A stretch of 64,000 nucleotides of DNA from an uncultured delta proteobacterium (GCA_963771175.1 CAVYSY010000002.1:107011-171010); one strand, 5' to 3'; positions 6,492-60,155 are shown, counted from the first letter of the stretch. The notes: a model not told the origin generated them from the sequence alone. Translations and numbers: made by a program.

Positions 6492-6712
6492 GCGCAGGGG
6501 GCCAGCCCGGGGAGACCACTCCATCGGAGAGGAATCCCCCAGGGAACGGACTGGGGTGTGAATCTGGCATGATGGGAACCGTCGTAAAGCTCGAATCCGG
6601 CTCTGAAAAACTTCAATGAGTCAGGGTGCTTGTGAGGGGCGGGGGCGTGGACACCCGTCGAATGCCCGTGCCATCGTCGTTCACTTCCAGCTGTCTTACA
6701 GGACCCTTGAAG

Positions 6713-7855
6713 ATGCAAACGCTTCTGCTCTCCCTCCTGCTTGCCACGGCTGCTGCCGACGCCACCACCGAACAACGGGTCTACGTCCTCGGCTCCTCCA
6801 TCAATCTCCGGAAGGAGCCCTCCGCGGAAGCGGAGATCCTGGAGAAGCTCCAGATTGGCACGGAGTGCCACGTCATCGAGAAGCTCGAGGGGGCGTGGTT
6901 GAAGGTCTGCTGCGGAAAGAAGGGCGGCTACGCGTCCGCGTCCCTGCTGGGGCCGGAGAAGCCCTCGGCCGAGAAGCTCAAGGCCGAGGCGCAGGACATG
7001 CGTCTCCCGCTCAAGCAGCGCGAAGAGAGTGCACTGCGCGCCGCGACCCTCTCCCCCGAGGATATCGAGCTGCAGACGCTACTGGGAAACCTCTTCTTCG
7101 AGCGGAACCTCGAGCTGATGGCTGACATCAAGAAGCCGACGACCCTGCGGACGTTCAACCACACGTGCTTCAACCAGAGTGACATCTCCTGCATCGGAGA
7201 TGCCGCTGGTGCAGGGGTGAAGAACGTGAAGATCCGGGCCGAGACGAAGGGGAACCTGTTCGTGGTGGCTCTCGGGAACGCCGAGCGAGTGGCCGTCTAT
7301 CGCGGCAGATATAATATCAACAAAACCCATGTGCTGACGGGGGAGGTCCTCGAGTCCACCGGCTTCGCCACGACCCCAGTGCTGGAGAAGGCGCTCTTCT
7401 TCGGCATCAAGCCGCGCAATTCCGGCAGGTGGGACCTGGTCCTCGGTCAATTCGCGCTGGACGAGGCCTCTCATGCAACCCTGGACGGGCTTCCCAGGGA
7501 GTGGGGCCGCCTGGAGCCGAGTCCCCCCGAGGGCTTCTTGATGATGCAGTGGAACGACTGCTTGAAGAGGCCTTTCCTGTTGAAGTTCAACCCGGACATT
7601 CACGGCCGGTGGCGTCTCTCGATCGAGACCGTTGGTACTGATAATGCTGCAGAGAACTACTGGATAGCTGCGGTGTCGAAACGCGGCAGTGACCTCGAGT
7701 TGACACTCGAGCGGTATTACGGGGGCACGAAGCGAGAGGTGTTCAAGCTTCCGGAAGGCCGCAAGGACATCGCCTACCTGGGGGACAAGGCGTATTCCTT
7801 CAAGCTCGACAGGTACGCAGAGGAGCATCACCGTTGCATTCAGGGCGGTCCCTAG
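6713..7855 (+). CDS. Secreted SH3b-domain protein (candidate immunity protein)
   Basis: ATG 6713, signal peptide MQTLLLSLLLATAAA, then VYVLGSSINLRKEPSAEAEILEKLQIGTECHVIEKLEGAWLKV...GYASASLL, the bacterial SH3 pattern NLR..P....W.KV....GY. Confidence 0.8.
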   Translation: MQTLLLSLLLATAAADATTEQRVYVLGSSINLRKEPSAEAEILEKLQIGTECHVIEKLEGAWLKVCCGKKGGYASASLLGPEKPSAEKLKAEAQDMRLPLKQREESALRAATLSPEDIELQTLLGNLFFERNLELMADIKKPTTLRTFNHTCFNQSDISCIGDAAGAGVKNVKIRAETKGNLFVVALGNAERVAVYRGRYNINKTHVLTGEVLESTGFATTPVLEKALFFGIKPRNSGRWDLVLGQFALDEASHATLDGLPREWGRLEPSPPEGFLMMQWNDCLKRPFLLKFNPDIHGRWRLSIETVGTDNAAENYWIAAVSKRGSDLELTLERYYGGTKREVFKLPEGRKDIAYLGDKAYSFKLDRYAEEHHRCIQGGP

Positions 7856-7879
7856 GCCGGATCCTCTTGAGGGCACGTC

Positions 7880-10800
7880 ATGAAAAAGAACAGCAGGTAT
7901 TGGCCAGACTGGAAGTACGAGCTGCCGGACAAGCTGTTGGCCGTGTTGGACGAATACCACATCCTCAAGGTCCCGCTCCTCGGACAACACTATCCGGGAG
8001 GACCCTCGGACTGGTGCGGACGAACGTCGTGCTCCATGGCGTTCAACTACTACCAGCTCGTGCAGGGCGGTGATGTCGAGTCGAAGTTCATCACGCACTG
8101 GGATGGAGGGCAGCAGGGGCGCTTCGTGGATCTCCGCTACCCGGGCGGCCAACGGGCATTCCACACCGAAGCCAGTCGCTGATCCTCAAAACGTCAATCT
8201 CGATGGGTATGCGGTTTCAGACCCCAACTACACGGCGGGCGATATCGCGGTGGTTACGCCACCGTCCGACTTCACGTCGGGGGCATTCAGCGCATCCCCC
8301 ATCCTGGGCTTCTCACGAGGCGTGGTGTTGCCCTACGACACGTCCAACCGGAAGGAACTGGCGGCCCGGATCGCGAACGACCCCTCCCTCATCGCATCGA
8401 AACTCGAAACCATCCTCGAGGCCGTCACCTCCAACAACCCGGTCATCTTCTACTCCGGGTTCTCCATGCGGGGCAGCGAGCCGATCCACCTCATCCTCAT
8501 CACCGGCTATGCCTATCTGAAGGACGACACGGGCCGGCACCTCTGGCTCGCGGTGGCAGATCCCGCGACTCATGAGAAGAAGATCAAGGCGGGCATGTAT
8601 TCGGTGCCCACGCCGGCGGCAACGCACGATCTGGATTCGCTTTCCCAACTCAGCGGAAAGCACAACATGATTCGTGTGATTCCCGGAAACTGGGAGGAGG
8701 CCAAGGCCCCGTTGGTGTTGATCCGGGCCCGGAGGCTCTTCGAGGAGAACACCCACAGCAGTGCCCGCGATGACCTGTACATGGACTACTGGGGAGGTGA
8801 CAACAAGGGCGGCACCTTCATCTATTCACACCGGTTCACACCCGCTCCTCCCGAGTGTGTCTTCACCAACGTGGCGTACTCCGTCGCCTACCCCGTGGAC
8901 GGCCGGAAGGAGCGCTTCCGCCCGGTCAACTGCTACGCGATGACGGAAGGGGCCGCGAAGGGCCTCTTCCCCCTGGGCAGCCACCGGAATCTCCACTCGG
9001 GGGTCCACCTGGAGCTCTCCAGCTTCTCGCGAACGCATCCACCGCCACCTCCACCCGAGGAGAAGAAGGAGCAGTCCGCGGCGAAGGGCTCGAAGACGAA
9101 GGCTCAGGAGCCCAAGAAGGCCGAGCCCGCCACCACCGAGGCGTCCAAGTCTACGCCCACCCCGCAGGTCCTCCACAGAGAGGTGCGCTGTCTCGCGCCG
9201 GGATACATCGTGGCCGTCCGGCTGGCGAACGCCCTTCCTGAATCCAAGCCACAGGCGGCGGTGGGCACCGAGCCGGCCGCGGAGAACGAGCTGGCCGAGC
9301 TGGCGAAGAAGGCGCTCGAAAAGAACCAGTTGTCCAAGGAGTTCGCGGGAAATCACAACTCCTTCATCCTGGTCCGCCACGACGTCGAGGAGCTCATCCC
9401 GAAGAAGGAGCAGCAGCCGGACGGAGGAGAGGCGAAGCGCTTCACCTTCTACAGCCTCTACATGCACCTGGTTCCCCCTGACTGGAAGAAGGCGGGGACG
9501 TACCAGGACGTGGCCTGGCTCAAGATTCTCGCGCGCCGCGAGGGCTCTCTGACCGTGCTCGATCCACAGCACGAGGCGTTCCAGCAGGTCCGGTGGCTCC
9601 AGGGCGCGTTGGAGGGCGCTGGCAACGAGGCGGACATCGTCCCGAAGGTGGGCGGCACCTTCACCACGATCGGTTCGGACTCTCTCCAAGCCCCAGACGT
9701 TCCAACTCGGCGACGAGGAGGGGGACGGGACTACATCCGCGCGGTCTTCAAGAAGCCGGAGAGAGACCTGGCCGAGCTTCACAAGGCCCTCATCGGCGGC
9801 GAGGTCGTCACCCTGTGCCATCCCTATCTCAAGGTCCGGGCCGGCGAGTTGATCGGCTATCTCGACGACAAGAGCGAGGCGGTGGGCGACGGCTTCCTCC
9901 ACTGGGAGATCCTCGCGCCCAGTGAACAGGGCCAGCTCGAGCAGTTCCTGAAGTTCGCGGAGGAGAAGCTCGGGCTGTCGAGCGGCGGCAAGCCCTTCTT
10001 CGAGTTCTTCGAGGAGACAGGACCAGAACAACGTCTTCGATCCTCCCGCGCTGCAGACCGGCTCCAAGCGCGAGGGCGAGCTCGATTCCCTGCTGAAGCT
10101 CGCGCCCGTGTTGGAGCAGGCGGGTGACGACGAGAAGCGGCTCCTCGCCAGCTTCCTGGACACCTACAGCCAGGGCAAGCTCCGACAGCTCCTGGGCTCC
10201 TCCCGCGCGTTGCCGTTCTATGCTCCAAAGCCCGAGGACAAGCCCGCCGAGGAGAAGGTCCTCAGCTATCCCGTCGATGTTCTCCTCGAGAACTACAAGG
10301 ACTGCCTGCCCGCGGGGTCCTACAAGCTCCGGTTCACCTTCGAGCCGTCGTCCTGCCCGCCACAGGAGGTCGAGTACGACGGGCAGAAGACCCACGTTCG
10401 CATCTACGTGCCCGCGGGGGCGCGGAAGATCTTCGTGCAGCCAGCGACGCCGGGGAGCCTCTTCCTCCAGTCCGGAGGCTACCCGGGCAAGGAGGAGAGC
10501 CTGAAGAAGGATGTCGAGCACTTCAGGACCCTGGCCTCCGTGCGCTGGCGCAACGTCGTCCTCCGGCACCTCAATGACTGGAGTCCCGAAGGCATCGAGA
10601 AGCAGATGCTGGAGCATCTGAAGACCCGCACCGAAGATGGCGCTCGGCTCGGACACCCTGGACTCCACGAACGAGCAGCAGGCGAAGGAGCTCATCCAGA
10701 AGTACGCGGATGCCATCGGCTGGTGGGCAAACAATGAGAAACCGGTGCTGGGTCCCAAGGGGGACGAGAAGCCCCTGTTCGCCGACAATCCGGACAGCGA

Positions 10801-12874
10801 GCAGTTGCCCAAGAACACCTTTCAGGACAACCCACACCCTGTCACCTTCGCCTGGCTGTTGATGCTCCTGACCCGGCACAACTTCATCCAGTTCACCGAC
10901 GTGCCGCTCTGGCATTCGGAGGAGCTAAAGGAGATTGCCGCGCTCGGGTGGTTGCCGGCGCGGGAGCGGTATGAGCCCCGGCGCATCGGCGAGCTCCTCT
11001 ACGTCGGCGCGGTGCAGCGGGGCCATGGCAAGGACAAGGTGTCCTTGCATGTCTCATTGGCGAAACCCGAGGCGTGGCGGCTCGAGATCGCCGCGGGGAC
11101 TTTCAACGAAGGGGTGTTCGCCCAGCCCGTGGAGGTGCCCGGATGGGGCGAGTGGAGCCTCGACGAGCCCGGCGCGCAGGCGCTCGGCGAGCTGAAGCTC
11201 CAGGGGCTCGAGCCCGTCTTCCTGAAGCCCTCCAGTCCACCCGGAGAGAATCGGCTCGCTCCCCATCGTTCCCGATGCGGCGCTGTCCAGTGGGAAGGAC
11301 GGAACCTTCTCCTGGCGGCTCGCGTTCCGGGCGAATTGTCCGAGGATCCTCCGCGGCTGGGTCCTCATCCGCAAATGGAAGGGCCGGGCGGCCGACGAAA
11401 TTCCGAAGGATGCCTCTGTTTTCGAGACCGCCGAGGTGGCGATCCCCGTCGTCGCGCGGGAGGACACGGCCATCAAGGAGGAGGCGGGCTTCGCGGTCGT
11501 CGATGGCTTCATCAAAAAGGGCAACGTCAAGGACGTCAGCACCTACGTCACGCAGCACTTCACGTACAAGCAGTTCCTCGACGCGGCCAAGGGGCAGAAG
11601 CTCGCCGCGGGCGCCGAGCCCCTGATTACCTGGGACCTCGTCGAGGCGGTGGAGCGCATCCGGAGCGGGTATGCGGCACGCCAGCCCGTGACCCTGCTCG
11701 GACTCTCCGAGGACGGGCTCTCCATCCAACTCCGGGCGGTCAACCTGGAGAAGCTGCGCGAGGTCGTGGCAAAGGCGAAGGAGGATGGCTGGATCGACGA
11801 TGCCGAGGAGGCGGGAAAAGGCGAGATCCGCATCCGGGTGAAAGCGCCGCGGGAGAGCAAGCACCCCGGTGAGCTCGTGGTGGAGCTCGATGCAAACGAG
11901 GCCTTCAGCGAGCTGCGCAAGGGGATGACCCACGAAGAGCAGCTGGCCGTGCAGTTCGGATGCTTCTTCCCGAACGGAGGCAGCGCGCAGGACGGACGGC
12001 TCCTGGCGTCGGACACGATCGGGAAGAGATATGAAGCGGTGAAGGTGGAGGATCTGAAGAGCCTGGCCCGGGGCGGACACCTGGAGCATTGGTCGACGGC
12101 GGTCGCGGAGGTGTTGCACAGCCCCATGTTCGGAGAGCCCGAGGTCCAGCTCACCAGCAAGGGCGCCCAGGTCTGCGTGCCGCTCCTGGGCGGCACCGCG
12201 AGCTTCTGGAACGCGGCTGGGCCGAGCATCAGCTTCGGGAAGGAGGAGCTCGACAAGAAGGCGACGTCGACCATCCTGCCCAATCCACTGCGCGTCGTGC
12301 GGGCATTGGACTTCAGCGACAAGAAATTGAAGGGCAAGCAGCTCGTGATCTCGGCATCCGTCAAGAAGAAGGACGTGACCCTGAAGACCGAGCGAATCGA
12401 CGTCCAGCCCTCGAGGAGAATCCAATACGACATGGAGCCGAGCGCCGAACTCGAGGCGCAACCGGCGCTGTACGACCCGTTCGTCCTGACGCTCTCCCTG
12501 CGCACGAACGCGGTCCCCGCCAGCAAGGGCTTCAAGATCGAGATCGCCAATGCCTCGGGGACGCTCCTGACCCTCCCGAAGGACTGCATCTCCTACGAGC
12601 TGCGGACCAAGGAAGGGGGCATCACGGATTCGAAGGGCGTCTTCCGCGCCAAGGTGGATGTGAGCGACATCGCGGAAGCGCTCAAGGGAGAGAAGGAGTA
12701 CGAGGTTCGTGTCGAGCCCGTGAACAAGGCGGACAAGGATTGGCCAGCAGCAAGAAACTCACCGTCCCCGACCCGCTTCAGCAGGAAGAGGCAGTGGACG
12801 TGATGGGCGATTTCCCGGGCATGTGGCCGGACGGACTGAGCGTGCCCATGAAGGGTGAGAGGGTCTGGAGATGA
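7880..12874 (+). CDS. ~1,660-aa multidomain putative effector: C39-like peptidase + M23-like effector backbone + degenerate M15A-like fold + beta-rich module, frameshifted
   Basis: ORFs 7880..8182, 8070..10127, 10108..10737, 10637..11872, 11436..12803 and 12089..12874 chain by frame switches. Motifs: VPLLGQ...WCGRTSCSM, HLILITGY, ADPA; GLFPLGSHRNLHSGVHL, VRCLAPGYIVAVRL, FYSLYMHL, VRAGELIGYL, FLHWEI; IGWW...HPVTF. Confidence 0.7.
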
Positions 12875-15358
12875 CGGACACCGCGCAGGTTGCTCCACCT
12901 CTCGAAGCTGAGGCTCGAACCAGGCGCTGAGGGGGTCATCCGCCTCGTGGCCGTGGCCCCCACCCGCCTCGAGCTCACCCTCTCCCCGGCGGATGTCCGG
13001 CAGGAAGGGCCCAAATACAAGCTCAAGCTACGGGGCACGCAGAAGAACCTGCCCAAGGACGCGACGTGCCGCGTGTTGATCAAGGCGGAGTCGCTCGGAG
13101 AGGTGCGGGACTCCGAACTCGGCGCGCAGCCCCTGCGGATCAACGGGGAGTCCTGCACCCTTGAGCTGGAGATCGACACCTTCGCTTCGGGCCTCTTCGG
13201 GAAGGGCAAGGCCCATTTCTCCGTCATCCCGGACTTTCCCTTCGCGACACCATGTGTCGTCTCCACTCCGGTGGAGTTCAACAACCCGTTGGATATCGAG
13301 GGAGCCAGCCCTGGCAAGGTACTGCTCGGCAAGCGGCTCGAGCTCACGCCGGTGTTCAGCGACAAGTTCGAGAAAGCGACGCTCAAGCTCTCCGTCTTCC
13401 ACGGGGGAGCGATCGAATCGGGCAAGCTCTCGGACTCACTGGCCTGGTCCATCTTCGAGTGGACCGCGGACGACGACGACACGAAGGAGTGGCGCGTTGG
13501 CTGCGCACAGAGCGGCGGCGAGTACCTGTTGACCTACCTCGAGAGGCACCAGGCCGAGTACAGCTATGACCTCCAGCTCGAGGTCATCCAGGAGTCCGAG
13601 GGGCAGGAGGTGAGCTACGTCGTCTGGAAGAGGCCCAACGCCGTCTCCTTCCCGAAACCGAAGCTGACGAGCTTCGAGATTGGCACTGGAAGCGCCCTCG
13701 CGAAGGTGGAGAACGTCAGTCCCGGCTTCAGGCTGCCACTGGAGCTGACGCTCTGGCAGTACGGACTCCAGGATCTGGATCCCGTCGTCCGGACCCTGAT
13801 GATGAATCCCATCTCACGGCCGGCATTGGCCGAGGCTTCGTCCTCGGAGTATTTCTGGCAGCTGCTCGTCCCCGATGTGTTGATGGAAAAGGTGCAGCTC
13901 TTCGCCCTGCTGCGCATTCCCAAGACGCTGTCGGGCACCGATACCTATGTGCCGGTCAGCGCGGTGATGGATTACGACGCGTCGAAGTTCCTCACCTTCG
14001 ATGACGACCAGCTCTGGCTCGAGCCCCCCGCGAAGAAGGGGACCAAGAAGTCCAAGCAGCACAAGACGCCGAAGGACCTGGCGACCGCGATTGCATCCCA
14101 GGAACTGAAGGATATTCCGACGCGAGCCCCTCACTTCGGCTCGATCTCGACGGGAGTGCGCGAAGACAATCTGCTCGTATCCATCAAGCTCGTGGGGGAT
14201 AGCGGTTACTGGAAGGCCGCCGAGCCCGTCTTCTCCCTCTACGACGAGGCCGGTCAGACCGAGCTCGCCAAACTCAAAACCCAGCCATCGGCGCAAAACC
14301 CCCGGCTCCACGAGGCGCTCATCCCCCTGGAGGACCCGAACCTCCTCGGCAAGAAGGTGCGCATCCGCGGCCAAGTCACCAATCCGGATGCGAACCTCTG
14401 GGGTGAGCTGGTCGCCGCCCCGCCGGCATTCTCCGTCGCCTATGAAGGCGTTCCCCGCTTCAGCGGGCTGACGATGCGCACCGTGGAGCTCACCGATGCC
14501 ACGTCCTATGTGCAGGTGAGATGTCAGGCCCACCATGTCCCGAACGGAAAGAAGGGCAGCACGCTCGGGTTCCGCATCTACGAGCTCTTCGCGGGCGTGA
14601 GGGAGCCGATCCTGCTCTCGCAGATGCCGTTCCGGTACGACGTCTCCAAGGGAGCGGGAGGCCAGTGCGACTCCCAGGGGCGACTGGTGGCTCGAATCAC
14701 GGACCAGGACATGGTCAAGAAGCTGCTGGGCCAGGGCAAGTACAGGCTCGAAGCATGCGTGCTAGACAAGGAGGGCAAGGTCTTGTCCTACGAGGTCCGT
14801 TCCACCTTCACGGAATTCGGGCCGTCGCCGCGGAAACTCGAGGGCACGATGGTCTGGGGAGCGAAAGTGCCGGCTGAGTTCAGGATGAAGGTGCTGGCCA
14901 TCTGCAACCTCTTGAAGCTCAAGGCGGATGACCTGATGGCCTGCATGGCCTTCGAGACGGGATGTACGTTCTCGGCCAAGAAGCAGAACAACGCGGGTCA
15001 TAACGCATACGGACTCATCCAGTTCACCAAGAGCGGCGCGGAGGGCCTTGGGAAGTCGGTGGACGAATTGAAGGGAATGACCGAGGTCGAGCAGCTCGAT
15101 TACGTCTACAAGTACATGGCCCGCTGCATCGAGCGGAAGGGTCCGCTCAACACGCGGAGCGACGTCTACATGGCCATCATCTGTCCCGAAGCCGTGGGTA
15201 AACCGGAGAGCTACGTCTGCTACTCGAGGGCGAACAGTCCGGTGGCGTACGAGGCAAACAAGGGGCTGGATCGAGGCAAGAAGGGATTCATCACCAAGGC
15301 CGACGCGACGGTGCCCGTGGATGAGCGCTACAACGAGGGGCAGAGCTTCCGGCTGTGA
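12871..15358 (+). CDS. ~830-aa protein with C-terminal lysozyme-like/lytic transglycosylase domain
   Basis: ATG 12871 overlaps the upstream TGA (ATGA); one extra base near 12889 separates it from ORF 12890..15358. C-terminus WGAKVPAEFRMKV...LMACMAFETGCTFS...GLIQFT...EQLDYVYKY...DVYMAI...AYEANKGLD is a phage-endolysin/SLT-like pattern (catalytic E, GLIQF). Confidence 0.8.
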
Positions 15359-17470: not shown

Positions 17471-17667
17471 CGGCGTTCCTCTGTCCTTTCGGACACTTGG
17501 CAGCCACCGGACCGGCGGATGTAGTGGATTCTGTAGTTACGGGCCGTGACTTGAGCGAGCGGGCGAGCGTAGCCGCATTTCCCGTGACCACCAGGCCCCC
17601 ACCAACCCGCCCCGCTCCGGGCCCGCTGTAGCCGCCCGGCAACCGAGCGCCTGTTGCTGGGCCGCCT

Positions 17668-18270
17668 CTATTCTCCCGACCCTTTCTGCTCTCTCTTCTT
17701 CTGTCGCGCATGGAGCCGCTCGACAATCGAGAAGGGGAACATGGCACGGTGATTGATGTTCCGGTAGTACACCGCCAGGTAATGCTCCCCACCAATCTGA
17801 ATGACGGTTTGAGCTGGCGGCTCGGTCTGGCTGTTGAACCAGGCGTCTGCCTCCTCGCGAGTATTGAACGTAGCCACCGCCGGAGGGAGGCCGTCTTTCG
17901 TCATCTCCTCGATGTGGTATTCAAGTCCGGAGTCTGGGACGAGTGAGCGGCGGCTACGGTCACGAGAAGACAGGACGCCGTAGTATTCGTCAGCGATCAA
18001 CACACAGGCCAAATCAGGTGGCTCAGGTTGCGCACTGAGCCAAGCCTCCGCCTCGTCCCGCGTGTTGAATGAGGCAATTACTCGGGGGGGGGCCTCGGAC
18101 TCGACGTCTTTGCGATAGCTCTCGAACTCATACGACTGGCCATTCCGCCAGACGAACCAGAGCGCGTCGATGGCGAGGAGAAACAACTCTTTTTCCTCGG
18201 GAGACTGAGCATGTTCTCGGTTCTTCCCGAGGAACGCCTGCGCTTCGATGATGCGGTCGAAAATCGTCAC
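17668..18270 (-). CDS. Myxobacterial hypothetical protein with internal duplication (candidate immunity protein)
   Basis: GTG 18270 overlaps the upstream TGA (GTGA); repeats ASFNTRDEAEAWLSAQPEPP and ATFNTREEADAWFNSQTEPP. Confidence 0.75.
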   Translation of the reverse strand: MTIFDRIIEAQAFLGKNREHAQSPEEKELFLLAIDALWFVWRNGQSYEFESYRKDVESEAPPRVIASFNTRDEAEAWLSAQPEPPDLACVLIADEYYGVLSSRDRSRRSLVPDSGLEYHIEEMTKDGLPPAVATFNTREEADAWFNSQTEPPAQTVIQIGGEHYLAVYYRNINHRAMFPFSIVERLHARQKKREQKGSGE

Positions 18271-18950
18271 GGCGCCACCGCTGCGATGTAGGGCTCGCAG
18301 ACAGCTTCCGATGAAGCCAGAGCTGCCAATGGAATCAAGGCAATGAGCGCCCCGGGAGGGAAGGCCACGACGAAGACAACTCCTGCAACTACGACAATAC
18401 TTCCCACCAGAACCTCGGTGCGATTGCGCTTCAACCAATCAACCGCTCGAGCCGTGGCCGAGAACTCAAGAGGGCGACGTCCCTGCAACTCTTCGCAATC
18501 AAGGTACGGCTGCCAGCACCCCTCCTTGCAGTAGCCGTGCTTGGCGCCACGAGACATGTGCGAATAGTCCTCAGAAAGAGGTCGGTCCATACACGTGTCG
18601 ATGCAATTATTGAGTTCCTCATGACAATCTCGCTGGCGAGCAGCCGCAAGCACGATACGCCCGTACGTCCTCTCCGCGCGAGGCTGGAGCCTGAATCGCG
18701 AAAGGTCAAACTCCTCCACGGGGCGCCAACTGTGAGTGACGTGAGCGCTGGGGGACTCCTGGATGACGAGCACGTACCGGTCGAGTTCTTCGACGGCCGG
18801 AGAAAAGGTGCCGCCGCTCATCCCCACGGACTCACGGGTGCTCGCGTCTTCGGTCGGACCCAGAGTAGCCGGTCCCGATGCACAGCCCGATACGAGCACT
18901 CCCAAGAGGGCCGCTACCCCTAGGATCAAGGCGCAATTCGCGCTTTTCAT
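18267..18950 (-). CDS. Cys-rich lipoprotein with hydrophobic C-terminal hairpin (candidate toxin)
   Basis: MKSANCALILGVAALLGVLVSG-C lipobox; CHEELNNCIDTC...CKEGCWQPYLDC; tail VLVGSIVVVAGVVFVVAFPPGALIALIPLAALAS. Confidence 0.75.
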   Translation of the reverse strand: MKSANCALILGVAALLGVLVSGCASGPATLGPTEDASTRESVGMSGGTFSPAVEELDRYVLVIQESPSAHVTHSWRPVEEFDLSRFRLQPRAERTYGRIVLAAARQRDCHEELNNCIDTCMDRPLSEDYSHMSRGAKHGYCKEGCWQPYLDCEELQGRRPLEFSATARAVDWLKRNRTEVLVGSIVVVAGVVFVVAFPPGALIALIPLAALASSEAVCEPYIAAVAP

Positions 18951-18987
18951 GTGGACAAAGCTAGGCCGGTGATGTGGGCATCGCAAG

Positions 18988-19188
18988 TTGCGCCTCAGCC
19001 GGCCCACCGAGGCCAACGGCGTCTTCGCATCCCTCCCGGCCGAGCTCATTCCCCGGATGCAGGAGCACACCTTCTTCTACGTCTGGGACGAGGCCACCTC
19101 CGAGGTGCGCTGGATGACGTCCTTCGACACCACCGAGGAGGACGTGCGCGGCTTCGCCGCCAGACTGCGAGAGCTGGTGGGCGGCTGA
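18988..19188 (+). pseudogene. ltaE: 3' remnant of low-specificity L-threonine aldolase
   Basis: PTEANGVFASLP...FYVWDEATSEVRWMTSFDTTEEDV..F matches the threonine aldolase C-terminus; no upstream part in the window. Confidence 0.7.
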
Positions 19189-27568: not shown

Positions 27569-28985
27569 CTACCGGCCCGGAGAGGGCGGCCCCAGGAAAC
27601 GCCCCTCCAGCCGCTTCACCTCCCCGGAGGCCTGGTCGGTGACCTCGAGCTGGAAGGTGAAGGGAACGCGCTGGGTCCGCTCCACGGTGATGAAGAGAGG
27701 CACCCGGAAGCTCTCCAGGGAGCCGAGCTTCACCTCCTGCTGTGGCACCACCACCGAGGCCGGCACCGGGCTGTCCACACGTATGGTGAAGGTGGACTCA
27801 GTGGGATTCTTGTTCACCAGGTGCAGCTCGAACTGGTTGCGCAGCGTGGTGCCCTCCATGAGGTAGGGCATGCCCTGGAAGCGCAGCAGGTTGGCCTCGA
27901 AGGGCTTGCGGCCCACCAGGGCCACCGTGAGCGCGACCCCGGAGATCAGCAGGAGGGCCCCGTAAAGGAACAGACGCGAACGGAGGACCCGGCGCGGCTG
28001 GCCCGCCAATCCGTTGAGCGAGTCGTAGCGGACGAGGCCCCTGGGACGCCCCAGCTTGTCCATCACCTCGTCGCAGGCGTCCACGCACTGCGCGCAGGCG
28101 ATGCAGTCCATCTGCAGGCCGTCGCGGATGTCGATGCCGGTGGGGCAGGCGGTGACGCACTTGCGGCAGTCCACGCAGTCGCCCTGGCGCGGAGCCTCGG
28201 GCAGGGACTGCTTCGCCTTCACCAGCCGGCCCCGGGGCTCGCCGCGACCGAGGTCGTAGCCGATGATGAGCGAGTCCCTGTCCTGCATCGCCGACTGCAG
28301 GCGCCCGTAGGGGCAGAGCACCACGCAGAGCTGCTCGCGGAACCAGGCGAAGTTGAAGTACAGCGCGCCCGTGACGACCATGGCCCAGGCGAAGGGCACG
28401 CCGTGACCGCCCGGCCCCTCGCGCACCATGGTGACCAGGTCCTTCACGGAGACGAAGAACGCCAGCGCCACGTGCGCCAGCAGCCAGCGACACGAGCAGG
28501 TAGGCCCCGTGCTTCGTCACCCCGCGCAGCACCCGCTGCGGCGTCCACGGCCCGGCCGCCATCTTCAGCCGGCGCTCGCGCGGGCCGTCGATCCACCGTT
28601 CGATGCTGGCGGTAGACGCCCTCGAGGAACACCGTCTGCGGACAGCGCCCAGCCGCACCACACGCGGCCGAGCCACGCCGTGGCGAAGAGCAGGGAGAAG
28701 CCCGCGGTGGTGAGCAGGAGGAGGACGAGCCAGAAGTCCTGCGCGTTGAAGGTGCGCGCCGAAGAGGTAGAAGTGGCGCGCCGCGATGTCCAGGTGGATG
28801 GCGGGATGGCCCCCCACCCGGACGAACGGCATCACCACGTAGATGGCGATCAACACCACGTAGACGAGGCGCCGCCAGCGGATGAAGCGGCCATGCACGT
28901 CCGAGGGGTGGATGCCCAGCCGGGACCCATCCGGCCGAATGGAGGCGAGATGCCCGGTGCCTGGCCCTGGAGCTTGCGGCTGCAT
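27569..28985 (-). CDS. ccoG: cbb3 oxidase accessory 4Fe-4S protein, frameshifted
   Basis: REQLCVVLCPYGRLQS, CVDCRKCVTACPTGIDIRDGLQMDCIACAQCVDACD. Confidence 0.92.
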
Positions 28986-28995
28986 ACGTCCTCCC

Positions 28996-29554
28996 TTACT
29001 GCGCCGGCTCGCCCTGAGGGGCCTTGCCGGGCACGTCCGTGTTCTTGAGCGTCAGCACGTAGGCGACGATGGCGCGCACGCGCTGGGCGCCCAGCGTGCT
29101 GCTCCCAGCCGGGCATGCCCTTGGCCACCACGCCCTCGGCGATCGTCTTCTGGATCTCCGTCGGCTTGCCGCCGTGCAGCCAGAACTTGTCCGTCAGGTT
29201 GGGGCCGATGAGCCCCTCGCCCTTCTGCGCCGTGACAGGCCGCGCACACCTGCGTGAACTGGGTCTTGCCCTGCTCCACCACCGCCGGCGTCGTTGACCA
29301 ACGCGAGCAGCGTCTCGTCGCCCGTGGGCGGCGGCTTGTTGGCGGCGGCGATGCGCGCGGCCTCGGCTGCCTCGGCCTTGTACACCTCGAGCGAGCCCGG
29401 GCCCTTGCCGCGTCACATGGTAGTAGTACCAGTAGCCGAAGCCGAAGACGATGGTGGTCCAGAGGATGAGCAGCCACCAGTTGGGCAGGTGGTTGTCCAT
29501 CTCCTCGATGCCGTCGTAGACGTGGAGAATTCCCGGCTTGTCACTCGAGCTCAT
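28996..29554 (-). CDS. ccoP: cbb3 cytochrome c oxidase subunit III (monoheme), frameshifted
   Basis: HVYDGIEEMDNHLPNWW N-terminus, CAACHG, GPNLTDKFWLHGG, KGMPGW. Confidence 0.88.
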
Positions 29555-29753
29555 GGTGGGTCCTCGCGCCGCGGGAGTCGGAAGTCACCGCGCCTGACTC
29601 GGCCAGCGGCAGCCGGGAGAGCGCGTCGTAGTCCTGGCCCCGCCGCGCGAGGAACACCCACGCGACCACGCCGAGGAACACAGCGAAGAAGAGAAGCAGG
29701 GTGAAGAGCGGGAGCTGGGTCAGCTCCATCCCCTCGTAGAATTGTTTCCACAT
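29551..29753 (-). CDS. ccoQ: cbb3 oxidase small subunit (CcoQ-like)
   Basis: [34 protein letters not shown]...YDALSRLPL, lying between ccoNO and ccoP. Confidence 0.8.
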
Positions 29754-32106
29754 CAGGGAGTCCCTCCCGCCGAGACGGCGCATCAGGCCCAGCTCGGCGC
29801 CTTCGGCAGATCCTGGGGCCCGCGCCCCAGCCGCTGCAGGTAGGAGATGATGGCGACCATCTCCGAGTCCCACGCCACCTGGACGCCCTGGGCGGCCAGG
29901 TCCGCGGTGATGGCCTCCGCCTGGGCCTTCTGGCGCGCCTCGGCCCCGTCGACGTCCGTGTTGGTGTAGGGCACGCCGAGCTTCTGCATCAGCGCAGCTT
30001 CTTGGGCGCCAGCTTCACGTCGATGCTTGTTCTCCGCGAGCCACGGGTACGGCGGCATGTTGGAGCCGGGGCTGGTGGCGCGCGGATCCATCAGGTGCGT
30101 GTAGTGCCAGAGGTTGGGGTACTTGCCGCCCACGCGGTGCAGGTCCGGCCCGGTGCGCTTGCTGCCCCACTGGAACGGGTGGTCGTAGATGAACTCCTCG
30201 GCGCGGGACACGTCGCCGTAGCGCTGCGACTCGGCGATGAACGGGCGGATCATCTGCGAGTGGCAGATGTAGCAGCCCTCGCGGACGTAGAGGTCGCGGC
30301 CCTGGAGCTCCAGCGGGCGAGTACGGCAGCTGGGCCTCGCCGTGCGCCGGCACCGCCTGCTTGATGAGGATGGTGGGCAGCAGCTCCGCCACGCCGCCGA
30401 TGAGGATGGCGATCAGGGTGAGCACGGTGAAGGCCAGCGGGCGGCCCTCGATGAGGGCGAACCACGTGGGCCGGCCGGCCTCACGGTCGCGCCGGGCCAC
30501 GATCCAGGCGATCTGCGCCCAGGGCCACGATGATGCCCATGATGACGATGGCACGCATCGGGCTGGCCCAGCCGAGGAAGATGCGTGACGCCGAGGATGG
30601 CCAGGCGCGAACAGCAGCGGCCAGCCGGTGAGCATGGCCACCCAGGCGGGCTTGCCGGGCACCACGGGCACGGGCGCCAGCTCCTCCACCACGACCGTGG
30701 TCTCGCCGTTCACCGCCTTGCCGGAGCGCGCCGTCTTCCAGAGGTTCCACGCCATCAGGAGGAAGCCGAGCAGGTAGAGCGTGCCGCCGACGAAGCGGAG
30801 CGATGTACATGGGCCGGATGGCGAGCAGCGTCTCGACGAAGTTCGGGTAGAGCAGCGTGCCGTCCGGGTTGGTGGCGCGCCACATCAGGCCCTGGTTGAT
30901 GCCCGAGACCCACATGGCGACGATGTAGAGCAGGATGCCGACGGTGCCGATCCAGAAGTGCAGGTCCGCCGCGCTTCGACGAGTGCAGCTTCGTGCCGTA
31001 CAGCCGCGGCACCAGCCAGTAGAACATGCCGGCCGCCATGAAGCCGTTCCAGCCCAGGGCGCCGCCGTGCACGTGGCCGATGATCCAGTCGGTGTAGTGC
31101 GCGAGCGCGCTCACGCTCTTGATGGAGAGCAGCGGGCCCTCGAACGTCGCCATGCCGTAGAAGGTGACGCCGGCGACGAAGAACTTGAGGACGGGGTCCT
31201 CGCGCAGCTTGTCCCAGGCGCCGCGCAGGGTGAGCAGGCCGTTGAGCATGCCGCCCCAGGAGGGCGCCCACAGCATCACGCTGAACACCATGCCCAGCGA
31301 CTGCGCCCAGTCCGGCAGCGCGGTGTAGAGCAGGTGGTGCGGACCGGCCCAGATGTAGATGAAGACCAGCGCCCAGAAGTGGATGATGGAGAGCCGGTAC
31401 GAGTAGACCGGGCCGCTCCGCCGCCTTGGGCAGGAAGTAGTACATGATGCCCAGGATGGGCGTGGTCAGGAAGAAGGCGACGGCGTTGTGGCCGTACCAC
31501 CACTGCACCAGCGCGTCCTGCACGCCGGCGAAGATCGAGTAGCTCTTCAGCGGGCTGAGCGGCAGCGCCAGGCTGTTGACGATGTGCAGCACCGCCACGG
31601 TGACGATGGTGGCGATGTAGAACCAGATGGCGACGTAGAGGTTCTTCTCGTTGCGCTTCGCCAGCGTCCAGAAGAAGTTGATGGCGAAGACCACCCAGAC
31701 CAGCGCGATGGCGATGTCGATGGGCCACTCCAGCTCGGCGTACTCCTTGGAGGTGGTGATGCCGAGCGGCAGCGTGATGGCCGCCGCGACGATGATGGCC
31801 TGCCAGCCCCAGAAGTGGATCTTGGAGAGCAGGTCGCGACGCCATGCGCGCCTTCAGCAGGCGCTGGGTGGAGTAGTAGATGCCGGCGAACATCATGTTG
31901 CCCACGAACGCGAAGATGACCGCGTTGGTGTGCAGCGGGCGCAGGCGCCAGAAGGTCAGGTAGGGGACGCCGAAGTTGAGCTGCCACCAGGCGAGCTGGG
32001 CGGCGACGAGCAGCCCACCAGCATGCCCACGACGCCGAACACGATCGAGGCGGTGATGAAGTGCCGTGTCGGTGGTGTCGTCGTAGACGATGCGTTGCTG
32101 TTGCAC
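29753..32106 (-). CDS. ccoNO: Fused cbb3 oxidase subunits I/II, heavily frameshifted
   Basis: [48 protein letters not shown], then [15 protein letters not shown] and [17 protein letters not shown]. Confidence 0.93.
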
Positions 32107-32127
32107 GGACGATCACCTCGTGGGAAT

Positions 32128-39014: not shown

Positions 39015-40519
39015 ACCGGCACGTCCTTTCGCGCCGCTGCCGCGAGAGCCGGGCGGGCATGGTCACGGGCTGCCGGCGCGGGCGCTCGTGCGGAGCTCGG
39101 CGCCGTGGGCCGGGTGGACGGCGTGCGCCGTGGCTGGCGCCCGCGCGAAGGCCAGCACGCTCTTCACCTCGCCGATGGCGATGATCGGGCAGGCAGCCGG
39201 ATGAAGAGCAGGAACAGGGTGAAGAAGAGGCCGAAGGTGCCGATGAAGGTGCCGACCTCGACGACGCGTGGGCGTGTACATGGCCCAGCTCGACGGCAGG
39301 AAGTCGCGGTGCAGCGACGGTCACGATGATGACGAAGCGCTCGAACCACATGCCCACGTTGATCGACGAGCGACAGCACGAAGATCGCCGGCGGCGCTGG
39401 TGCGGATCTTCTTGAACCAGAAGAGCTGCGGCGACGACCACGTTGCAGCGTCACCATCGTCCAGTACGCCCAGGCGTACGGGCCGAACGCGCGGTTGAGG
39501 AACGCGAAGCGCTCGTACGGGTTGCCCGCAGTACCAGGCGATGAAGAACTCCATCGCGTAGGCGCAGCCGACGATGCCGCCCGGTGACGAGGATGATCTT
39601 GTTCATGTTCTCGAGGTGGCGCGATGGTGATGAGGTCCTCGAAGCCCGAGCACCTTGCGGGCGATGATCATCAGCGTCAGCACCATGGCGAAGCCGCAGA
39701 AGATCGCGCCGGCCACGAAGTAGGGCGGGAAGATGGTGGTGTGCCAGCCGGGGATGACGCGAGGTGGCGAAGTCGAAGGACACGATGGTGTGCACCGAGA
39801 GCACCAGCGGCGTCGCGAGGCCGGCGAGCAGCAGGTACACCATCTCGTAGCGCTGCCAGGTGCGCGTGCGAGCCGCGTCCAGCCCGAGCGACAGCACGCC
39901 GAAGATGGCCTGCTGCAGCCCGCTCTTCGCCCGGTCGCGCAGCGGTGGCCAGGTCGGGGATCAGGCCGACGTACCAGAACACCAGCGAGATGGTGAAGTA
40001 GGTGCTGATGGCGAACACGTCCCACAGCAGCGGCGAGCGGAAGTTCACCCACAGGCTGCCGCGCGTGTTCGGGTACGGGAAGCACCCAGAAGGCGAGCCA
40101 GGGCCGGCCCATGTGGATGAGCGGGAAGATGCGCCGCGCACATGACGGCGAAGATCGTCATCGCCTCGGCGGCGCGGTTGATGCTGGTGCGCCACTTCTG
40201 CCGGAAGAGGAAGAGGATGGCGGAGATGAGCGTGCCGGCGTGGCCGATGCCGACCCAGAACACGAAGTTGGTGATGTCGAAGGCCCAGCCGACCGTCTTG
40301 TTCAGGCCCCAGACGCCGATGCCGGTGGCGACCTGGTAGGCGACCATGCCCACGCCGAGCCCGAGCGTGGCGACGCGCCAGGGCGAAGGCCACCCACCAG
40401 GCCTGGCGGTGGGCTGGCGCTCCATGGGCGGCGCAGATCTCCTCGGTGATCTGACCGAGGCGTGCGCTCCTCGCTGACGAGCGGCTCGCGCAGCGGTGGA
40501 GCGTGTGCTGGTTGCTCAT
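39011..40519 (-). CDS. actC: Alternative complex III subunit C (NrfD family), frameshifted
   Basis: [84 protein letters not shown]. Confidence 0.92.
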
Positions 40520-43506: not shown

Positions 43507-43518
43507 GGTGCGCGTTCC

Positions 43519-59853: not shown

Positions 59854-59933
59854 CCGCCGTGTCCCCGTGAATCACTTCCGTGAAGCGCGGGTAGCCTCTC
59901 CAGCGGGAGAGGAGTGGTATGCACGGTGGCGCC

Positions 59934-60155
59934 GTGAATCTGCTCCTCCTCCTAGACTCCGATTTCCTCCCCGACGGCACCGTCCAGATGACCGGCCGCC
60001 GGGCCCAGCACGCCCGTGAGGTGCTCCGTGCCGAGCCCGGGGAGACACTCCGCGTGGGCCGGCTCGGTGGGCTCGTGGGCACCGGCGAGGTGCTGGAGAA
60101 CACCCCCGGCCTGCTCCGCCTGCGCATCTCCCTCACCGATCCGCCCCCTCCCCGA
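59934..60155 (+). pseudogene. rsmE: 5' fragment of 16S rRNA m3U1498 methyltransferase, fused in frame to a transposase remnant
   Basis: [11 protein letters not shown]...[29 protein letters not shown]...L....PPPP, an RsmE N-terminal domain pattern. Confidence 0.7.

Follow-up and report, generated by a model that had tools for sequence, protein, structure and literature searches.

What kind of system is encoded by three adjacent genes near one end of a 64,000-nucleotide stretch of DNA from an uncultured delta proteobacterium, a soil myxobacterium (GCA_963771175.1 CAVYSY010000002.1:107011-171010; hereafter the window), and how would its products reach their target? A preliminary description, made from the sequence alone, had proposed an undescribed cell-wall-attacking system; its observations are confirmed in part, and its interpretation is supported in part. 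The reading we favour, at slightly better than even confidence, is that the trio is an orphan antibacterial cassette of effector and immunity genes found in Myxococcaceae/Archangiaceae, related to the 'double-blade' WHIX effectors of type VI secretion (T6SS) but giant and split, and most likely delivered by a T6SS.

The genes (g1, g2 and g3) and their domains are listed in Table 1. An unbroken plus-strand coding signal extends across 6713-15358 in a GC3 frame plot. The stop of g1 at 7855 is separated from the ATG of g2 at 7880 by a 24-bp gap, and the ATG of g3 (12871-12873) overlaps the TGA stop of g2 (12872-12874) in an ATGA, by which g3 is translationally coupled to g2. The co-orientation and tight spacing reported earlier are therefore retained, with the amendment that g2 and the start of g3 are frame-broken in the window: g2 comprises five successive frame stretches (7880-8182, 8070-10127, 9952-10737, 10622-11872 and 11226-12803), plus a final one ending at 12874. 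As first described, the cassette is richer in A/T and in Lys than its surroundings, with a G+C content of 0.634 compared to 0.698 in the remaining window, and a Lys content of 6.8-7.5% in g1 and g3 compared to 1.1-3.0% in three flanking proteins.

Table 1. Coordinates of the cassette genes and of their domains in the window.
Feature	Position	Strand	Basis or remark
g1, exported SH3b protein, 380 aa	6713..7855	+	ORF
SH3b domain of g1	6794..6949	+	residues 28-79; Pfam SH3_3
g2, giant effector gene	7880..12874	+	orthologues 1614-1759 aa; frame-broken in window
g2, putative C39-like (papain-fold) Cys peptidase domain	7880..8870	+	
g2, WHIX-like domain (the part first described as 'M23-like')	8913..9986	+	
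g2, C-terminal ~960 aa beta-sandwich (Ig/macroglobulin-like) chain with small alpha/beta inserts	9987..12865	+	
g2, module common to g3	12114..12751	+	L009 residues 1412-1626; hhalign
g3, partner protein gene	12871..15358	+	orthologues 819-866 aa
g3, module homologous to g2 C-terminus	14120..14794	+	hhalign
g3, putative lytic transglycosylase domain (phage-type, lysozyme-like)	14825..15355	+	PDB profile match

Intact orthologues of g2 (1614-1759 aa) and g3 (~830 aa) are known from Archangium, Cystobacter, Hyalangium, Pyxidicoccus and Myxococcus, and among named records the cassette is confined to fruiting myxobacteria. Co-occurrence of the trio in other genomes had been set as a test of the proposal, and the three genes indeed stand in identical order at 12 of the 13 myxobacterial loci with enough sequence, the exception being L033, which is without g1. 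Among these 13 loci, orthologues share 65-85% nucleotide identity across the whole cassette whereas the flanks are unrelated; because the identity spans the cassette and nothing beside it, its conservation exceeds chance. Paralogous cassette pairs are present in two genomes (L001/L010 and L009/L011). G+C lies under that of the flanks at 12 of the 13 loci, likewise in the window, and, together with the unrelated flanks, this gives the three coupled genes the look of an acquired island, as had been supposed. An extra gene (Y), encoding a LysM domain, lies beside 7 of the 13 cassettes, and the L015 cassette adjoins TsiV and Imm52 immunity genes.

Relative to the intact orthologues at L009 and L001, the window carries single-base insertions near 8166, 9681, 10018, 10630, 11252 and 12908, and single-base losses near 9722 and 12738. 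The insertion near 12908 is the one indel in g3, where it shifts the opening 12 codons relative to the reading frame of the remainder, and 9681 and 9722 form a compensating +1/-1 pair in g2. These indels had been half seen before, with advice to repair them, and eight are now placed. The intact L009 and L001 proteins map contiguously over the g2 and g3 frames (tblastn on the window), in agreement with the GC3 frame switches. If the indels were real, the locus would here be a decaying pseudogene, which has stopped producing g2, perhaps g3 too, and retains g1 as an orphan immunity gene. Toxin systems often contain such orphans, and decay would fit both the clustering of the indels (eight within 4.7 kb, from g2 to the beginning of g3, zero in g1 or in the last 2.4 kb of g3) and their position outside long homopolymers. 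We nevertheless consider it unlikely. Genes of a housekeeping type are broken in the window as well, with ccoN split into 4 frames, ccoP into 2 and an in-frame TAG inside the cytochrome c peroxidase gene, and the eight indels are for this reason most likely assembly errors. Once corrected, the g2 frames contain no in-frame stops or larger deletions, and the dN/dS of g2 against L009 (0.236) equals that of intact pairs (0.246 between two intact orthologues). Between the +1/-1 pair, 41 nt apart, the original frame of the DNA still codes for the orthologous peptide, and a similar fragmentation occurs in L015, which comes from a single 12-Mb contig.

For g2, a C39-like Cys peptidase had been proposed, and this assignment holds for its N-terminus. 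Pfam Peptidase_C39_2 (PF13529) matches 12 of 12 g2 homologues (best E 2.8e-7), L009 itself scoring 22.5 bits, under the 24-bit cut-off, and the g2 fragments of the window giving no match to it at E 0.01; 25 of 29 database relatives carry a precomputed PF13529 annotation. The residues Q35, C45, H204 and D228 are invariant in the alignment of g2 homologues, and their counterparts are kept in the window (Gln 7985, Cys 8015, His 8487 and Asp 8559). In the AF2 model, residues 1-330 reach a pLDDT of ~70-94, and the Foldseek PDB list for this part is dominated by papain-clan proteases (3pw3, calpains, SERA5, UfSP and cathepsin L), the kind of fold that structure searches had been expected to return, but with a best E of 0.064 and no match at E <= 0.001. 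Judged by its sequence, the N-terminus of g2 is thus a papain-like (C39-like) Cys peptidase. By eye, neither g2 nor g3 bears an N-terminal signal peptide, as had been stated for both large proteins.

The adjoining stretch of g2 had been called M23-like. A true peptidase M23/LytM was not found here: 12 homologues give no Pfam M23 match at E <= 5, and their motifs are HxxxH and (F)LHWE, not HxxxD/HxH. Instead, the region is homologous to WHxxxH-bearing proteins with the look of WHIX effectors. A profile built on it finds 334 proteins at E <= 1e-3 among 1.84 billion proteins searched; WHGG[IV]H is present at residues 40-54 in 14 of the 15 small matches checked, and several small matches end in muramidase, GH19, VgrG3-like-C or Ntox44 domains, a motif and a domain layout that agree with the published account of WHIX. 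In hhalign comparison of g2 with a WHIX-type profile, the 10 comparison proteins being called WHIX by motif and architecture and not by the accessions of the WHIX paper, region 1 is matched at 99.4% (E 1.1e-21, spanning comparison-profile positions 30-147), and region 2 weakly, at 71% (E 3.7e-5, 52 columns; HMMER domain E-values 0.006-26). The reciprocal HMM matches the window ORF 7884-10124 (E 6.7e-17) and all 14 g2 sequences, and nothing further, whether in the window or at the myxobacterial loci. Throughout the g2 family (12/12 homologues) the motif reads (N)LHSGxH, e.g., LHSGVH, with Trp changed to Leu and both His invariant, and the window keeps His 8994, His 9006, His 9465, His 9900 and Glu 9906. 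A Pro/Lys/Glu-rich insert lies inside the domain (~9012-9185), and AF2 confidence is low in this part, g2 residues 332-429 being below 50. Taken together, these profile matches identify the core of g2 as a domain homologous to proteins resembling WHIX T6SS effectors. A distant M23 link of the region is possible, with weak to good Pfam M23 matches in 8 of 49 small matches of the profile. Among 29 distant giants, C39_2 is found in 7, Amidase_2 in 3, M15_4 in 4, M23 in 4 and none of these in 13, C39_2 and M23 occurring together in two; N-terminal domains are swapped among these giants, so that the family is polymorphic. Owing to the homology to WHIX-looking proteins, the system is not wholly undescribed, contrary to the first proposal, although the cassette family is uncharacterized, and export by a T6SS can be proposed.

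The C-terminal ~960 aa of g2, modeled by AF2 at a mean pLDDT of 71.7, match no Pfam family in the window or in homologues. Foldseek against the PDB returns IgE, complement C3, E. coli alpha-2-macroglobulin and PrgB Ig domains (E 3e-8 to 2e-5, TM 0.08-0.13), and the BFVD matches are phage fibre, Big-1 and FN3 arrays (TM 0.08-0.14). An M15A peptidase, named in the first description, is not supported: there is no Pfam match, only H1226 and D1278 are near-invariant in the suspected stretch, without a third ligand to complete a conserved H/D/H, and the fold is missing from the top 50 Foldseek matches of the g2 C-terminus, a list dominated by Ig-like arrays. Of the several wall-hydrolase families announced, the C39-like and lytic transglycosylase domains thus stand, whereas these ~960 aa are Ig-like and not enzymes. 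Part of the array recurs in g3, the g2-family and g3-family modules aligning at 97.9% (hhalign, E 4.8e-13), with a faint tblastn echo. As a separate observation, Peptidase_M15_4 replaces C39 at the N-terminus of some distant relatives of g2.

That g3 is a coupled, lysozyme-like partner is borne out by its C-terminal domain as well as by the ATGA overlap. Against PDB profiles, the domain matches the 'lytic transglycosidase' 9udh_A (E 3.3e-51, 165 positions) and also the phage 'Internal protein' 9k2v_E (E 9.5e-15), while Pfam Phage_lysozyme2 matches weakly (E 0.009). In 281 phage records, a 'putative lytic transglycosylase' is 41-47% identical to the last 170 aa, and the rest of g3 is unmatched there. 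A catalytic-type Glu is invariant in 21 sequences and is kept in the window at 14954-14956. By homology, g3 therefore ends in a phage-type lytic transglycosylase.

The upstream gene g1 had been put forward as a periplasmic immunity protein. Six Cys are invariant among 14 homologues, which also share a hydrophobic, signal-like stretch at the N-terminus; 12 of the 13 cassettes have g1 directly 5' of g2, tandem copies occur in L011 (three) and L015 (two), and dN/dS against L009 is 0.25. Pfam SH3_3 scores 24.5 bits on g1 of the window, under the 27-bit cut-off, and 28.7 bits, over it, on the L009 orthologue; the SH3b domain reaches E 0.093 against PDB profiles, and the Atlas leads, to be taken as leads only, are SH3 proteins (scores <=0.81). 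A complex prediction of g1 with the enzyme domain, of the kind suggested earlier, gives weak support: the predicted complex with the g2 peptidase has a median score of 0.44 (runs 0.09, 0.77 and 0.44) against 0.09 for the best control, and the score falls to 0.09 once the g2 peptidase is replaced. At least 61% of contacts are common to the runs, with a partner pLDDT of at least 83. Of 157 solved complexes, 116 pass the mark applied, as do 2 of 215 mismatched pairs, but only 18 of the 157, and both passing mismatches, do so at scores <=0.60; the calibration differs for g1, which was predicted in a three-chain job with custom alignments. No downstream signal-peptide gene is conserved 3' of the cassette, and in the clade of the window no immunity candidate against the g3 transglycosylase was found. 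From its signal peptide, Cys pattern, tandem copies and weakly predicted binding, g1 is probably the immunity protein, albeit unlike typical small immunity proteins with its 380 aa and SH3b domain, and missing from L033, where g2 and g3 are present.

How, then, would two large proteins leave the cell? As noted at first, no vgrG, PAAR or adaptor gene is adjacent; these, Hcp and eCIS genes adjoin none of the 13 cassettes (scan of 57 out of the 72 ORFs predicted in the flanks), and the 64-kb window contains no vgrG, PAAR, Hcp, adaptor or other T6SS gene. The absence of an adjacent T6SS gene still stands, but the export route is no longer without explanation, since the resemblance of the g2 core to the WHIX loading domain suggests one. 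The WHIX domain, which loads effectors for the T6SS, was reported in 2025 (Fridman et al., PLoS Biol 2025, PMC12135965). According to this paper, the domain is bipartite (aa 31-126, region 1, and 271-476 of the reference effector) and sufficient for T6SS secretion, in which WHIX effectors cap the C-terminal tail of VgrG, and more than 98% of WHIX effectors are encoded in T6SS-bearing genomes. Its S2 Dataset includes three Archangium, two Pyxidicoccus and one Polyangium genomes, in which 10-11 of the 11 core T6SS COGs are present and VgrG hits number 5-42, and the Archangium strain MIWBW listed there is the source of L001 and L010 (PMC12135965). As summarized in a review, M. xanthus has one T6SS cluster, with effector-immunity loci scattered round the chromosome as the rule, and in myxobacteria the T6SS is used for discriminating kin more than for preying on other cells. 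The original notion of an antibacterial or predation weapon is accordingly kept as regards the cell wall and loses ground as regards predation. Delivery by a T6SS is the most likely route in our analysis. In such a scheme, g2 and g3 would be made in the cytoplasm and then associate, and a VgrG whose gene lies at some other place in the genome would receive the WHIX-like cavity of g2 on its C-terminal tail. The T6SS would fire the complex into the periplasm of a neighbour, where the g2 peptidase may cut peptide stems or cross-links and the g3 transglycosylase the glycan strands. Sister cells would be shielded by g1, whose SH3b domain might hold their own peptidoglycan, blocking at least the g2 peptidase.

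An unlikely alternative, in our estimate, is a cell-wall toxin of two proteins with g1 as immunity, used in predation on other species and exported by other means, such as a Tad-like Kil system, a needle-less T3SS, vesicles or lysis of the producer. The WHIX-like part would then be a peptide-binding or catalytic M23-derived domain, for which its invariant His/His/His/His/Glu set could be a metal site, in keeping with the weak M23 matches among its small relatives; the 13 loci devoid of adjacent T6SS genes would also fit, and the review describes the Kil and T3SS* effectors as unidentified. Set against this are the homology of g2 to proteins of WHIX motif and architecture, the sufficiency of WHIX for secretion and the scattered effector-immunity loci of M. 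xanthus cited above, and no positive tie connects the cassette to Kil or T3SS*.

Far less probable is a complex for remodelling the producer's own cell wall, in spore formation or envelope-machine insertion, with g1 as periplasmic regulator. Domains that bind or cleave peptidoglycan, including SH3b in g1 and LysM in gene Y, and the restriction of named records to fruiting myxobacteria would suit it, but neither g2 nor g3 has a signal peptide, the distribution is patchy, with varying locations, paralogous copies and low G+C, and polymorphic N-terminal domains, tandem g1 arrays and the TsiV and Imm52 neighbours of L015 argue against it. A phage remnant, in which tail or internal-virion proteins bearing lytic domains were domesticated, as the g3 transglycosylase with its 'Internal protein' match and the fibre-like fold of the Ig-like array might suggest, is the least probable of all, as the phage similarity is limited to the 170-aa g3 domain, g2 has zero matches among 50,697 phage and 72,556 plasmid records, no phage gene flanks any of the 13 cassettes and the fold matches are to generic Ig/FN3 arrays (TM 0.08-0.14).

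Among the systems described so far, WHIX effectors such as Awe1 of Aeromonas jandaei, with its immunities AwiU and AwiD, come closest (PMC12135965). Compared with these effectors as presented there, g2 is alike in its central domain homologous to WHxxxH proteins, in a putative peptidoglycan-targeting domain N-terminal to it (C39-like in g2), in an upstream signal-peptide gene (g1), in a second candidate peptidoglycan hydrolase at the opposite end (here g3) and in polymorphic N-terminal domains among its relatives, as in WHIX subclass II. WHIX proteins that lack a toxin at the C-terminus are reported to sit 5' of a gene for a peptidoglycan-degrading enzyme (PMC12135965). In contrast, g2 is twice as long (1614-1759 aa compared to ~860), continues beyond the WHIX-like part with Ig-like repeats of ~960 aa, has LHxxxH in place of WHxxxH and matches region 2 weakly; the second blade is a separate, coupled protein of ~830 aa sharing a module with g2, and the C39-like blade is outside the types in Table 2 of PMC12135965. 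In addition, no vgrG is adjacent, the clade of the window has no downstream immunity gene, and the host belongs to the Myxococcota, which are named 0 times in the main text of that paper.

Compared by description and not by sequence, Tse4 of Acinetobacter baumannii delivers a lytic transglycosylase and an endopeptidase together by T6SS, with one immunity protein, as is proposed for the cassette, but combines both activities in one far smaller protein. The phage-type lytic transglycosylases (9udh, endolysin-like or internal-virion enzymes) resemble the last 170 aa of g3, including the invariant Glu, whereas g3 has 650 extra N-terminal residues with no phage match and no phage context. At 4 of the 7 non-myxobacterial loci examined, a transglycosylase-domain protein lacking a signal peptide is followed by a DUF5991 protein that has one, an arrangement with the appearance of an effector-immunity pair; in the literature searched, no mention of DUF5991 was found. 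These pairs (Vibrio, Photobacterium and Hahella) share the g3-type domain at 40-47% identity, and differ in a PG_binding_1-like N-terminus, in having DUF5991 and not g1 as neighbour and in lacking a giant partner. On the reading favoured here, the cassette would be a giant two-protein weapon that probably cuts the cell walls of rival bacteria, together with its likely antidote.

Three co-oriented genes, g1 (encoding an SH3b protein), g2 (a giant C39-like and WHIX-like protein) and g3 (a partner ending in a lytic transglycosylase), are best read as a myxobacterial member, so far uncharacterised, of the WHIX class of T6SS effectors which target peptidoglycan, or as an offshoot of that class (Fridman et al., 2025). 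The effector is of giant size and is divided between two coupled genes, with a C39-like domain as its first blade and a phage-type transglycosylase as its second. The preliminary description, made from the sequence alone, had proposed an SH3b immunity protein, a giant C39/M23/M15A-like effector and a lysozyme-like partner, an interpretation which holds in part. The gene layout it gave, with a 24-bp gap between g1 and g2 and a g2 stop codon overlapping the g3 start, was recovered, and its observation of the cassette is real, with the caveat that single-base indels break g2 and the start of g3. The G+C content of the window, about 0.70-0.75, falls to 0.60-0.66 in a patch at about 6.6-15.4 kb, and by GC3 frame plot the + strand is coding throughout 6713-15358, the frame changing near 8100, 9960, 10540, 11200 and 12750. 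A scan for promoters and terminators gave no excess over shuffled controls. A second low-G+C patch in the window holds two ORFs which match no Pfam family, and transposase fragments lie at two other places in the window.

Coordinates of the cassette genes, of other features of the window and of features at homologous loci (L numbers, loci in other genomes)
Feature	Location	Strand	Remarks
g1	window 6713-7855	+	ORF
g2	window, start ATG 7880, stop TGA 12872-12874	+	24-bp gap after g1
g3	window, ATG 12871, end 15358	+	start overlaps g2 stop
Second low-G+C patch	window 17500-19100	-	G+C 0.60; ORFs 17671-18438 and 18270-19070
cbb3 oxidase operon	window 28850-32112	-	ccoN, ccoO, ccoQ, ccoP, then FixG
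Molybdopterin oxidoreductase	window 39162-43518		Fe4S4 domain in ORF 42322-43518
Di-haem cytochrome c peroxidase	window 48381-49487	-	Pfam CCP_MauG; in-frame TAG at 49029-49031
Transposase fragments	window 59895-60752 and 63305-63967		Y2_Tnp; HTH + DDE_Tnp_1_6
g1, three tandem copies	L011 408-4516		second cassette of Archangium minus
g1, two tandem copies	L015 2467-4901		Cystobacter fuscus; frame-broken
TsiV and Imm52 genes	L015 12658-14626		directly downstream of the cassette
X (g1 paralogue)	L007 12613-14100		
X	L010 12472-13869		
X	L008 1964-3487	-	
Y (LysM gene)	L006 2919-3902		
Y	L007 14079-15122		
Y	L008 12529-13485		
Y	L010 13895-14926		
Y	L012 11306-12271		
Y	L013 11153-12118		
Y	L033 11524-12435		
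Transglycosylase-DUF5991 pair	L016, L018, L022, L057, about 9460-11050 each		Vibrio, Photobacterium, Hahella

The cassette is conserved and mobile. Homologous loci were found by blastn in Archangium, Cystobacter, Hyalangium, Pyxidicoccus, Myxococcus and other Myxococcaceae (13 in all); at these loci homology begins at 6600-6713 and stops exactly at 15358, with unrelated flanks. The order g1-g2-g3 is kept in 12 of the 13 cassettes, the most distant one (L033, 28-31% identity) carrying g2 and g3 only, and cassette G+C lies below that of the flanks at 12 of the 13 loci. Two genomes each hold two paralogous cassettes. Relatives with organism names are annotated as 'hypothetical protein' or by their SLT domain alone, and g2 found no match among plasmids and phages by tblastn. 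A survey of the homologues' neighbourhoods, proposed in the preliminary description, revealed no T6SS structural, eCIS or phage genes among 57 of 72 predicted flanking ORFs scanned at the 13 loci. Genes for TsiV, a T6SS immunity protein, and Imm52 directly follow the cassette of Cystobacter fuscus. A recurrent gene, Y, which is absent from the window and encodes a protein of about 320 aa with CarboxypepD_reg-like and LysM domains and without a signal peptide, adjoins seven of the 13 cassettes; like the g1 paralogue X, it accompanies the more distant ones.

According to the WHIX paper, WHIX is a bipartite domain which suffices for secretion by the T6SS, and its proposed role is to cap a VgrG at the C-terminal tail; subclass II 'double-blade' effectors carry a second peptidoglycan-targeting domain at the N-terminus, and the immunity genes on their flanks encode signal peptides (PMC12135965). 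A profile of residues 345-705 of the intact g2 protein of Archangium minus (L009), searched against 1.84 billion proteins, gave 334 matches at E <= 1e-3, of which 100 reached E <= 1e-10; they split into two groups. The first consists of giants of 1400-2100 aa with the WHIX-like domain behind a variable N-terminal domain: among 29 scanned against Pfam, this was Peptidase_C39_2 in seven, Amidase_2 in three, Peptidase_M15_4 in four and canonical Peptidase_M23 in four (two of them also with C39_2), and 13 had no Pfam domain there. Proteins P0057-P0149 from this search represent a large superfamily in which C39_2, Amidase_2, M15_4 and M23 are interchangeable in front of the WHIX-like domain; a further search from one protein, P0112, returned only metagenome proteins and two Pyxidicoccus proteins. 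The second group comprises proteins of 200-1100 aa with the WHIX-like domain at the extreme N-terminus. Some of the 49 scanned end in VgrG3-like-C, N-acetylmuramidase, GH19 or Ntox44 domains, 12 have Amidase_2 and two M15_4 in front, and eight match Pfam M23; the motif WHGG[IV]H stands at residues 40-54 in 14 of the 15 proteins checked. In motif, position and C-terminal peptidoglycan-targeting domains, these proteins correspond to WHIX proteins as characterised by Fridman et al. (2025).

When the g2 region was compared, profile against profile, with ten of these WHIX-type proteins, region 1 matched at 99.4% (E 1.1e-21) and part of region 2 at 71% (E 3.7e-5). An HMM of the ten recovered all 14 g2 sequences collected, including the window ORF 7884-10124 (E 6.7e-17), and, across the window and the myxobacterial loci, nothing besides g2. 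The g2 family has LHSGxH where WHIX has WHGGxH, and the blocks following the motif are nearly identical in the two consensus sequences. The M23 motifs noted earlier in g2 are therefore real residues which belong to the WHIX-like domain; their M23 identity did not stand, as Pfam M23 found no match in g2 even at E 5. The WHIX-like domain, for which the AF2 model is poor, may itself be M23-derived.

In front of this domain, at the g2 N-terminus, the C39-like peptidase proposed for g2 was borne out. Pfam Peptidase_C39_2 matches 12 of 12 g2 homologues (best E 2.8e-7), and Gln35, Cys45, His204 and Asp228 are invariant and kept in the window. The window's own g2 pieces matched no Pfam family at E 0.01. 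AF2 modelled residues 1-330 confidently, and the top Foldseek matches of the N-terminal model are all papain-clan proteases, at E 0.06 or worse. A profile search of the g2 family against the PDB yielded a chance histone match alone (E 0.88), and the ESM Atlas gave no usable match to g2. Residues 706-1665 are modelled as consecutive beta-sandwiches, among them a few small alpha/beta inserts (AF2, mean pLDDT 71.7). The C-terminal model found only Ig, macroglobulin and FN3 arrays in the PDB and BFVD, matches so generic that enzyme folds can be neither assigned nor excluded domain by domain. The M15A peptidase suggested for g2 was rejected, the C-terminal stretch probably meant having neither a Pfam match nor a conserved metal triad.

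The last 170 aa of g3 are, by sequence comparison, a phage-type lytic transglycosylase, in agreement with the lysozyme-like partner first proposed. They match PDB entry 9udh (E 3.3e-51) and a phage 'Internal protein' (E 9.5e-15), and are 41-47% identical to enzymes in 281 phage records; the catalytic-type Glu of the transglycosylase is invariant and kept in the window. The g2 C-terminus has a homologous counterpart in g3, at residues 425-649 (97.9%, E 4.8e-13), and this common module fits two proteins which may dock with one another or with a shared third protein. At four of seven non-myxobacterial loci examined, a transglycosylase protein that lacks a signal peptide precedes a DUF5991 protein that has a signal peptide. 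The arrangement follows the effector-immunity pattern, and the two look like an unreported effector-immunity pair; a literature search found neither 'DUF5991' nor '9UDH'.

The first gene, g1, probably encodes an SH3b-bearing immunity protein. Its product has a hydrophobic, signal-like N-terminal segment and six invariant Cys residues; the SH3b match scores 24.5 bits in the window and 28.7 bits in the L009 orthologue, against a cut-off of 27, and the rest of the protein, a C-terminal part of 290 aa, belongs to no known family. Profile search against the PDB gave nothing below E 0.09, and the ESM Atlas gave SH3 leads only, with scores under 0.9. A complex of g1 minus its signal peptide with the g2 peptidase (residues 1-335) and the g3 transglycosylase was predicted weakly, at a median score of 0.44 (runs 0.09, 0.77 and 0.44; best control 0.09), from three chains and custom alignments, in both of which the calibration differed. 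In that calibration, 116 of 157 solved complexes passed, as did two of 215 mismatched pairs; those which passed with a score of 0.60 or under were only 18 of the 157 solved complexes, but both of the mismatches. The g1 runs had at least 61% of contacts in common, with partner pLDDT of at least 83, and replacing the g2 peptidase lowered the score to 0.09. If g1 binds anything in this prediction, it would be the g2 peptidase. Tandem copies of g1 occur in Archangium minus and Cystobacter fuscus. Its paralogue X, found at three of the 13 cassettes and absent from the window, has the SH3b domain and helical N-terminus of g1, but its C-terminal domain, Cys-rich and about 350 aa long, is a different one, which suggests that X and g1 form a modular family of SH3b-anchored inhibitors.

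In the window, the coding sequence of g2 switches between several frames, and g3 begins with 12 codons in a frame other than that of its remainder. Intact orthologues measure 1665 aa (g2) and 836 aa (g3) in Archangium minus (L009), and 1628 and 829 aa in A. lansingense (L001); these proteins map contiguously onto the window across its frames, 78-92% identical and free of internal stops (tblastn). Nucleotide alignment places extra single bases near 8166, 9681, 10018, 10630, 11252 and 12908, and missing ones near 9722 and 12738. Assembly error is the strongly favoured explanation, because other genes are broken as well, g2 evolves like an intact gene (dN/dS 0.236 against L009; 0.246 between the two intact orthologues), and the cassette in the 12-Mb single-contig assembly of L015 is fragmented in like manner. 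In the cbb3 oxidase operon, housekeeping ccoN is divided among four frames and ccoP between two, a sign that indel errors are frequent, or decay is real, beyond the cassette too. The di-haem cytochrome c peroxidase gene is interrupted by an in-frame TAG, the halves on either side matching profile positions 2-78 and 80-148. The molybdopterin oxidoreductase region, in which the Fe4S4 domain alone was found, may likewise hold a gene disrupted by frame errors; its part at 39162-41221 is 71-78% identical to L015 19288-21329. Real, recent decay of the cassette is a possible, less probable explanation, since the indels are clustered. A programmed frameshift or alternative genetic code was rejected, as the sites have no common motif and housekeeping genes are broken too. 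A count of GC3 frame switches over the window did not separate frameshifts from gene borders.

The identities of the domains and the conservation of the cassette stand on the comparisons above; we infer from them that g2 and g3 form a complex and are delivered by a T6SS, and that g1 confers immunity. The 64-kb window holds no T6SS genes. A review describes a single T6SS cluster in Myxococcus xanthus with effector-immunity loci scattered round the chromosome, a system serving mainly kin discrimination, and mentions a nuclease toxin of the T6SS and nuclease toxins of the OME type (PMC10433427). Myxococcota go unmentioned in the main text of the WHIX paper; its S2 Dataset of genomes with WHIX homologues includes three Archangium, two Pyxidicoccus and one Polyangium, one of the Archangium being strain MIWBW, from which L001 and L010 come. 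In these genomes, 10-11 of the 11 core COGs of the T6SS are present, and VgrG hits number 5-42 (PMC12135965). The listing of Archangium and Pyxidicoccus suggests that the paper's catalogue already includes some g2 homologues, or that these genomes hold other WHIX proteins.

A bolder reading, which we hold to be improbable, is that the cassette founds a class of giant WHIX-derived weapons. The loading domain would be followed by an Ig-like arm of roughly 1000 aa, on which the separately encoded second enzyme would dock via the common module; the resulting hetero-complex of about 280 kDa would deliver two or three wall-cutting activities in one shot, and an inhibitor tethered by its SH3b domain to the wall of the producer itself would neutralise it. 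Under the same low probability, the complex would alternatively be cargo of a machine which myxobacteria use in predation, Kil or T3SS*.

If the assignment of the cassette to the WHIX class or an offshoot of it is true, WHIX-type effectors reach Myxococcota in a far larger, two-gene form, a C39-like 'blade' joins the known peptidoglycan-targeting toxin domains, and myxobacteria would possess a cell wall-directed effector for kin discrimination or competition. The polymorphic superfamily of giants (100 cluster representatives at E <= 1e-10) is a large source, yet to be explored, of enzymes active on the wall and of SH3b-anchored inhibitors.
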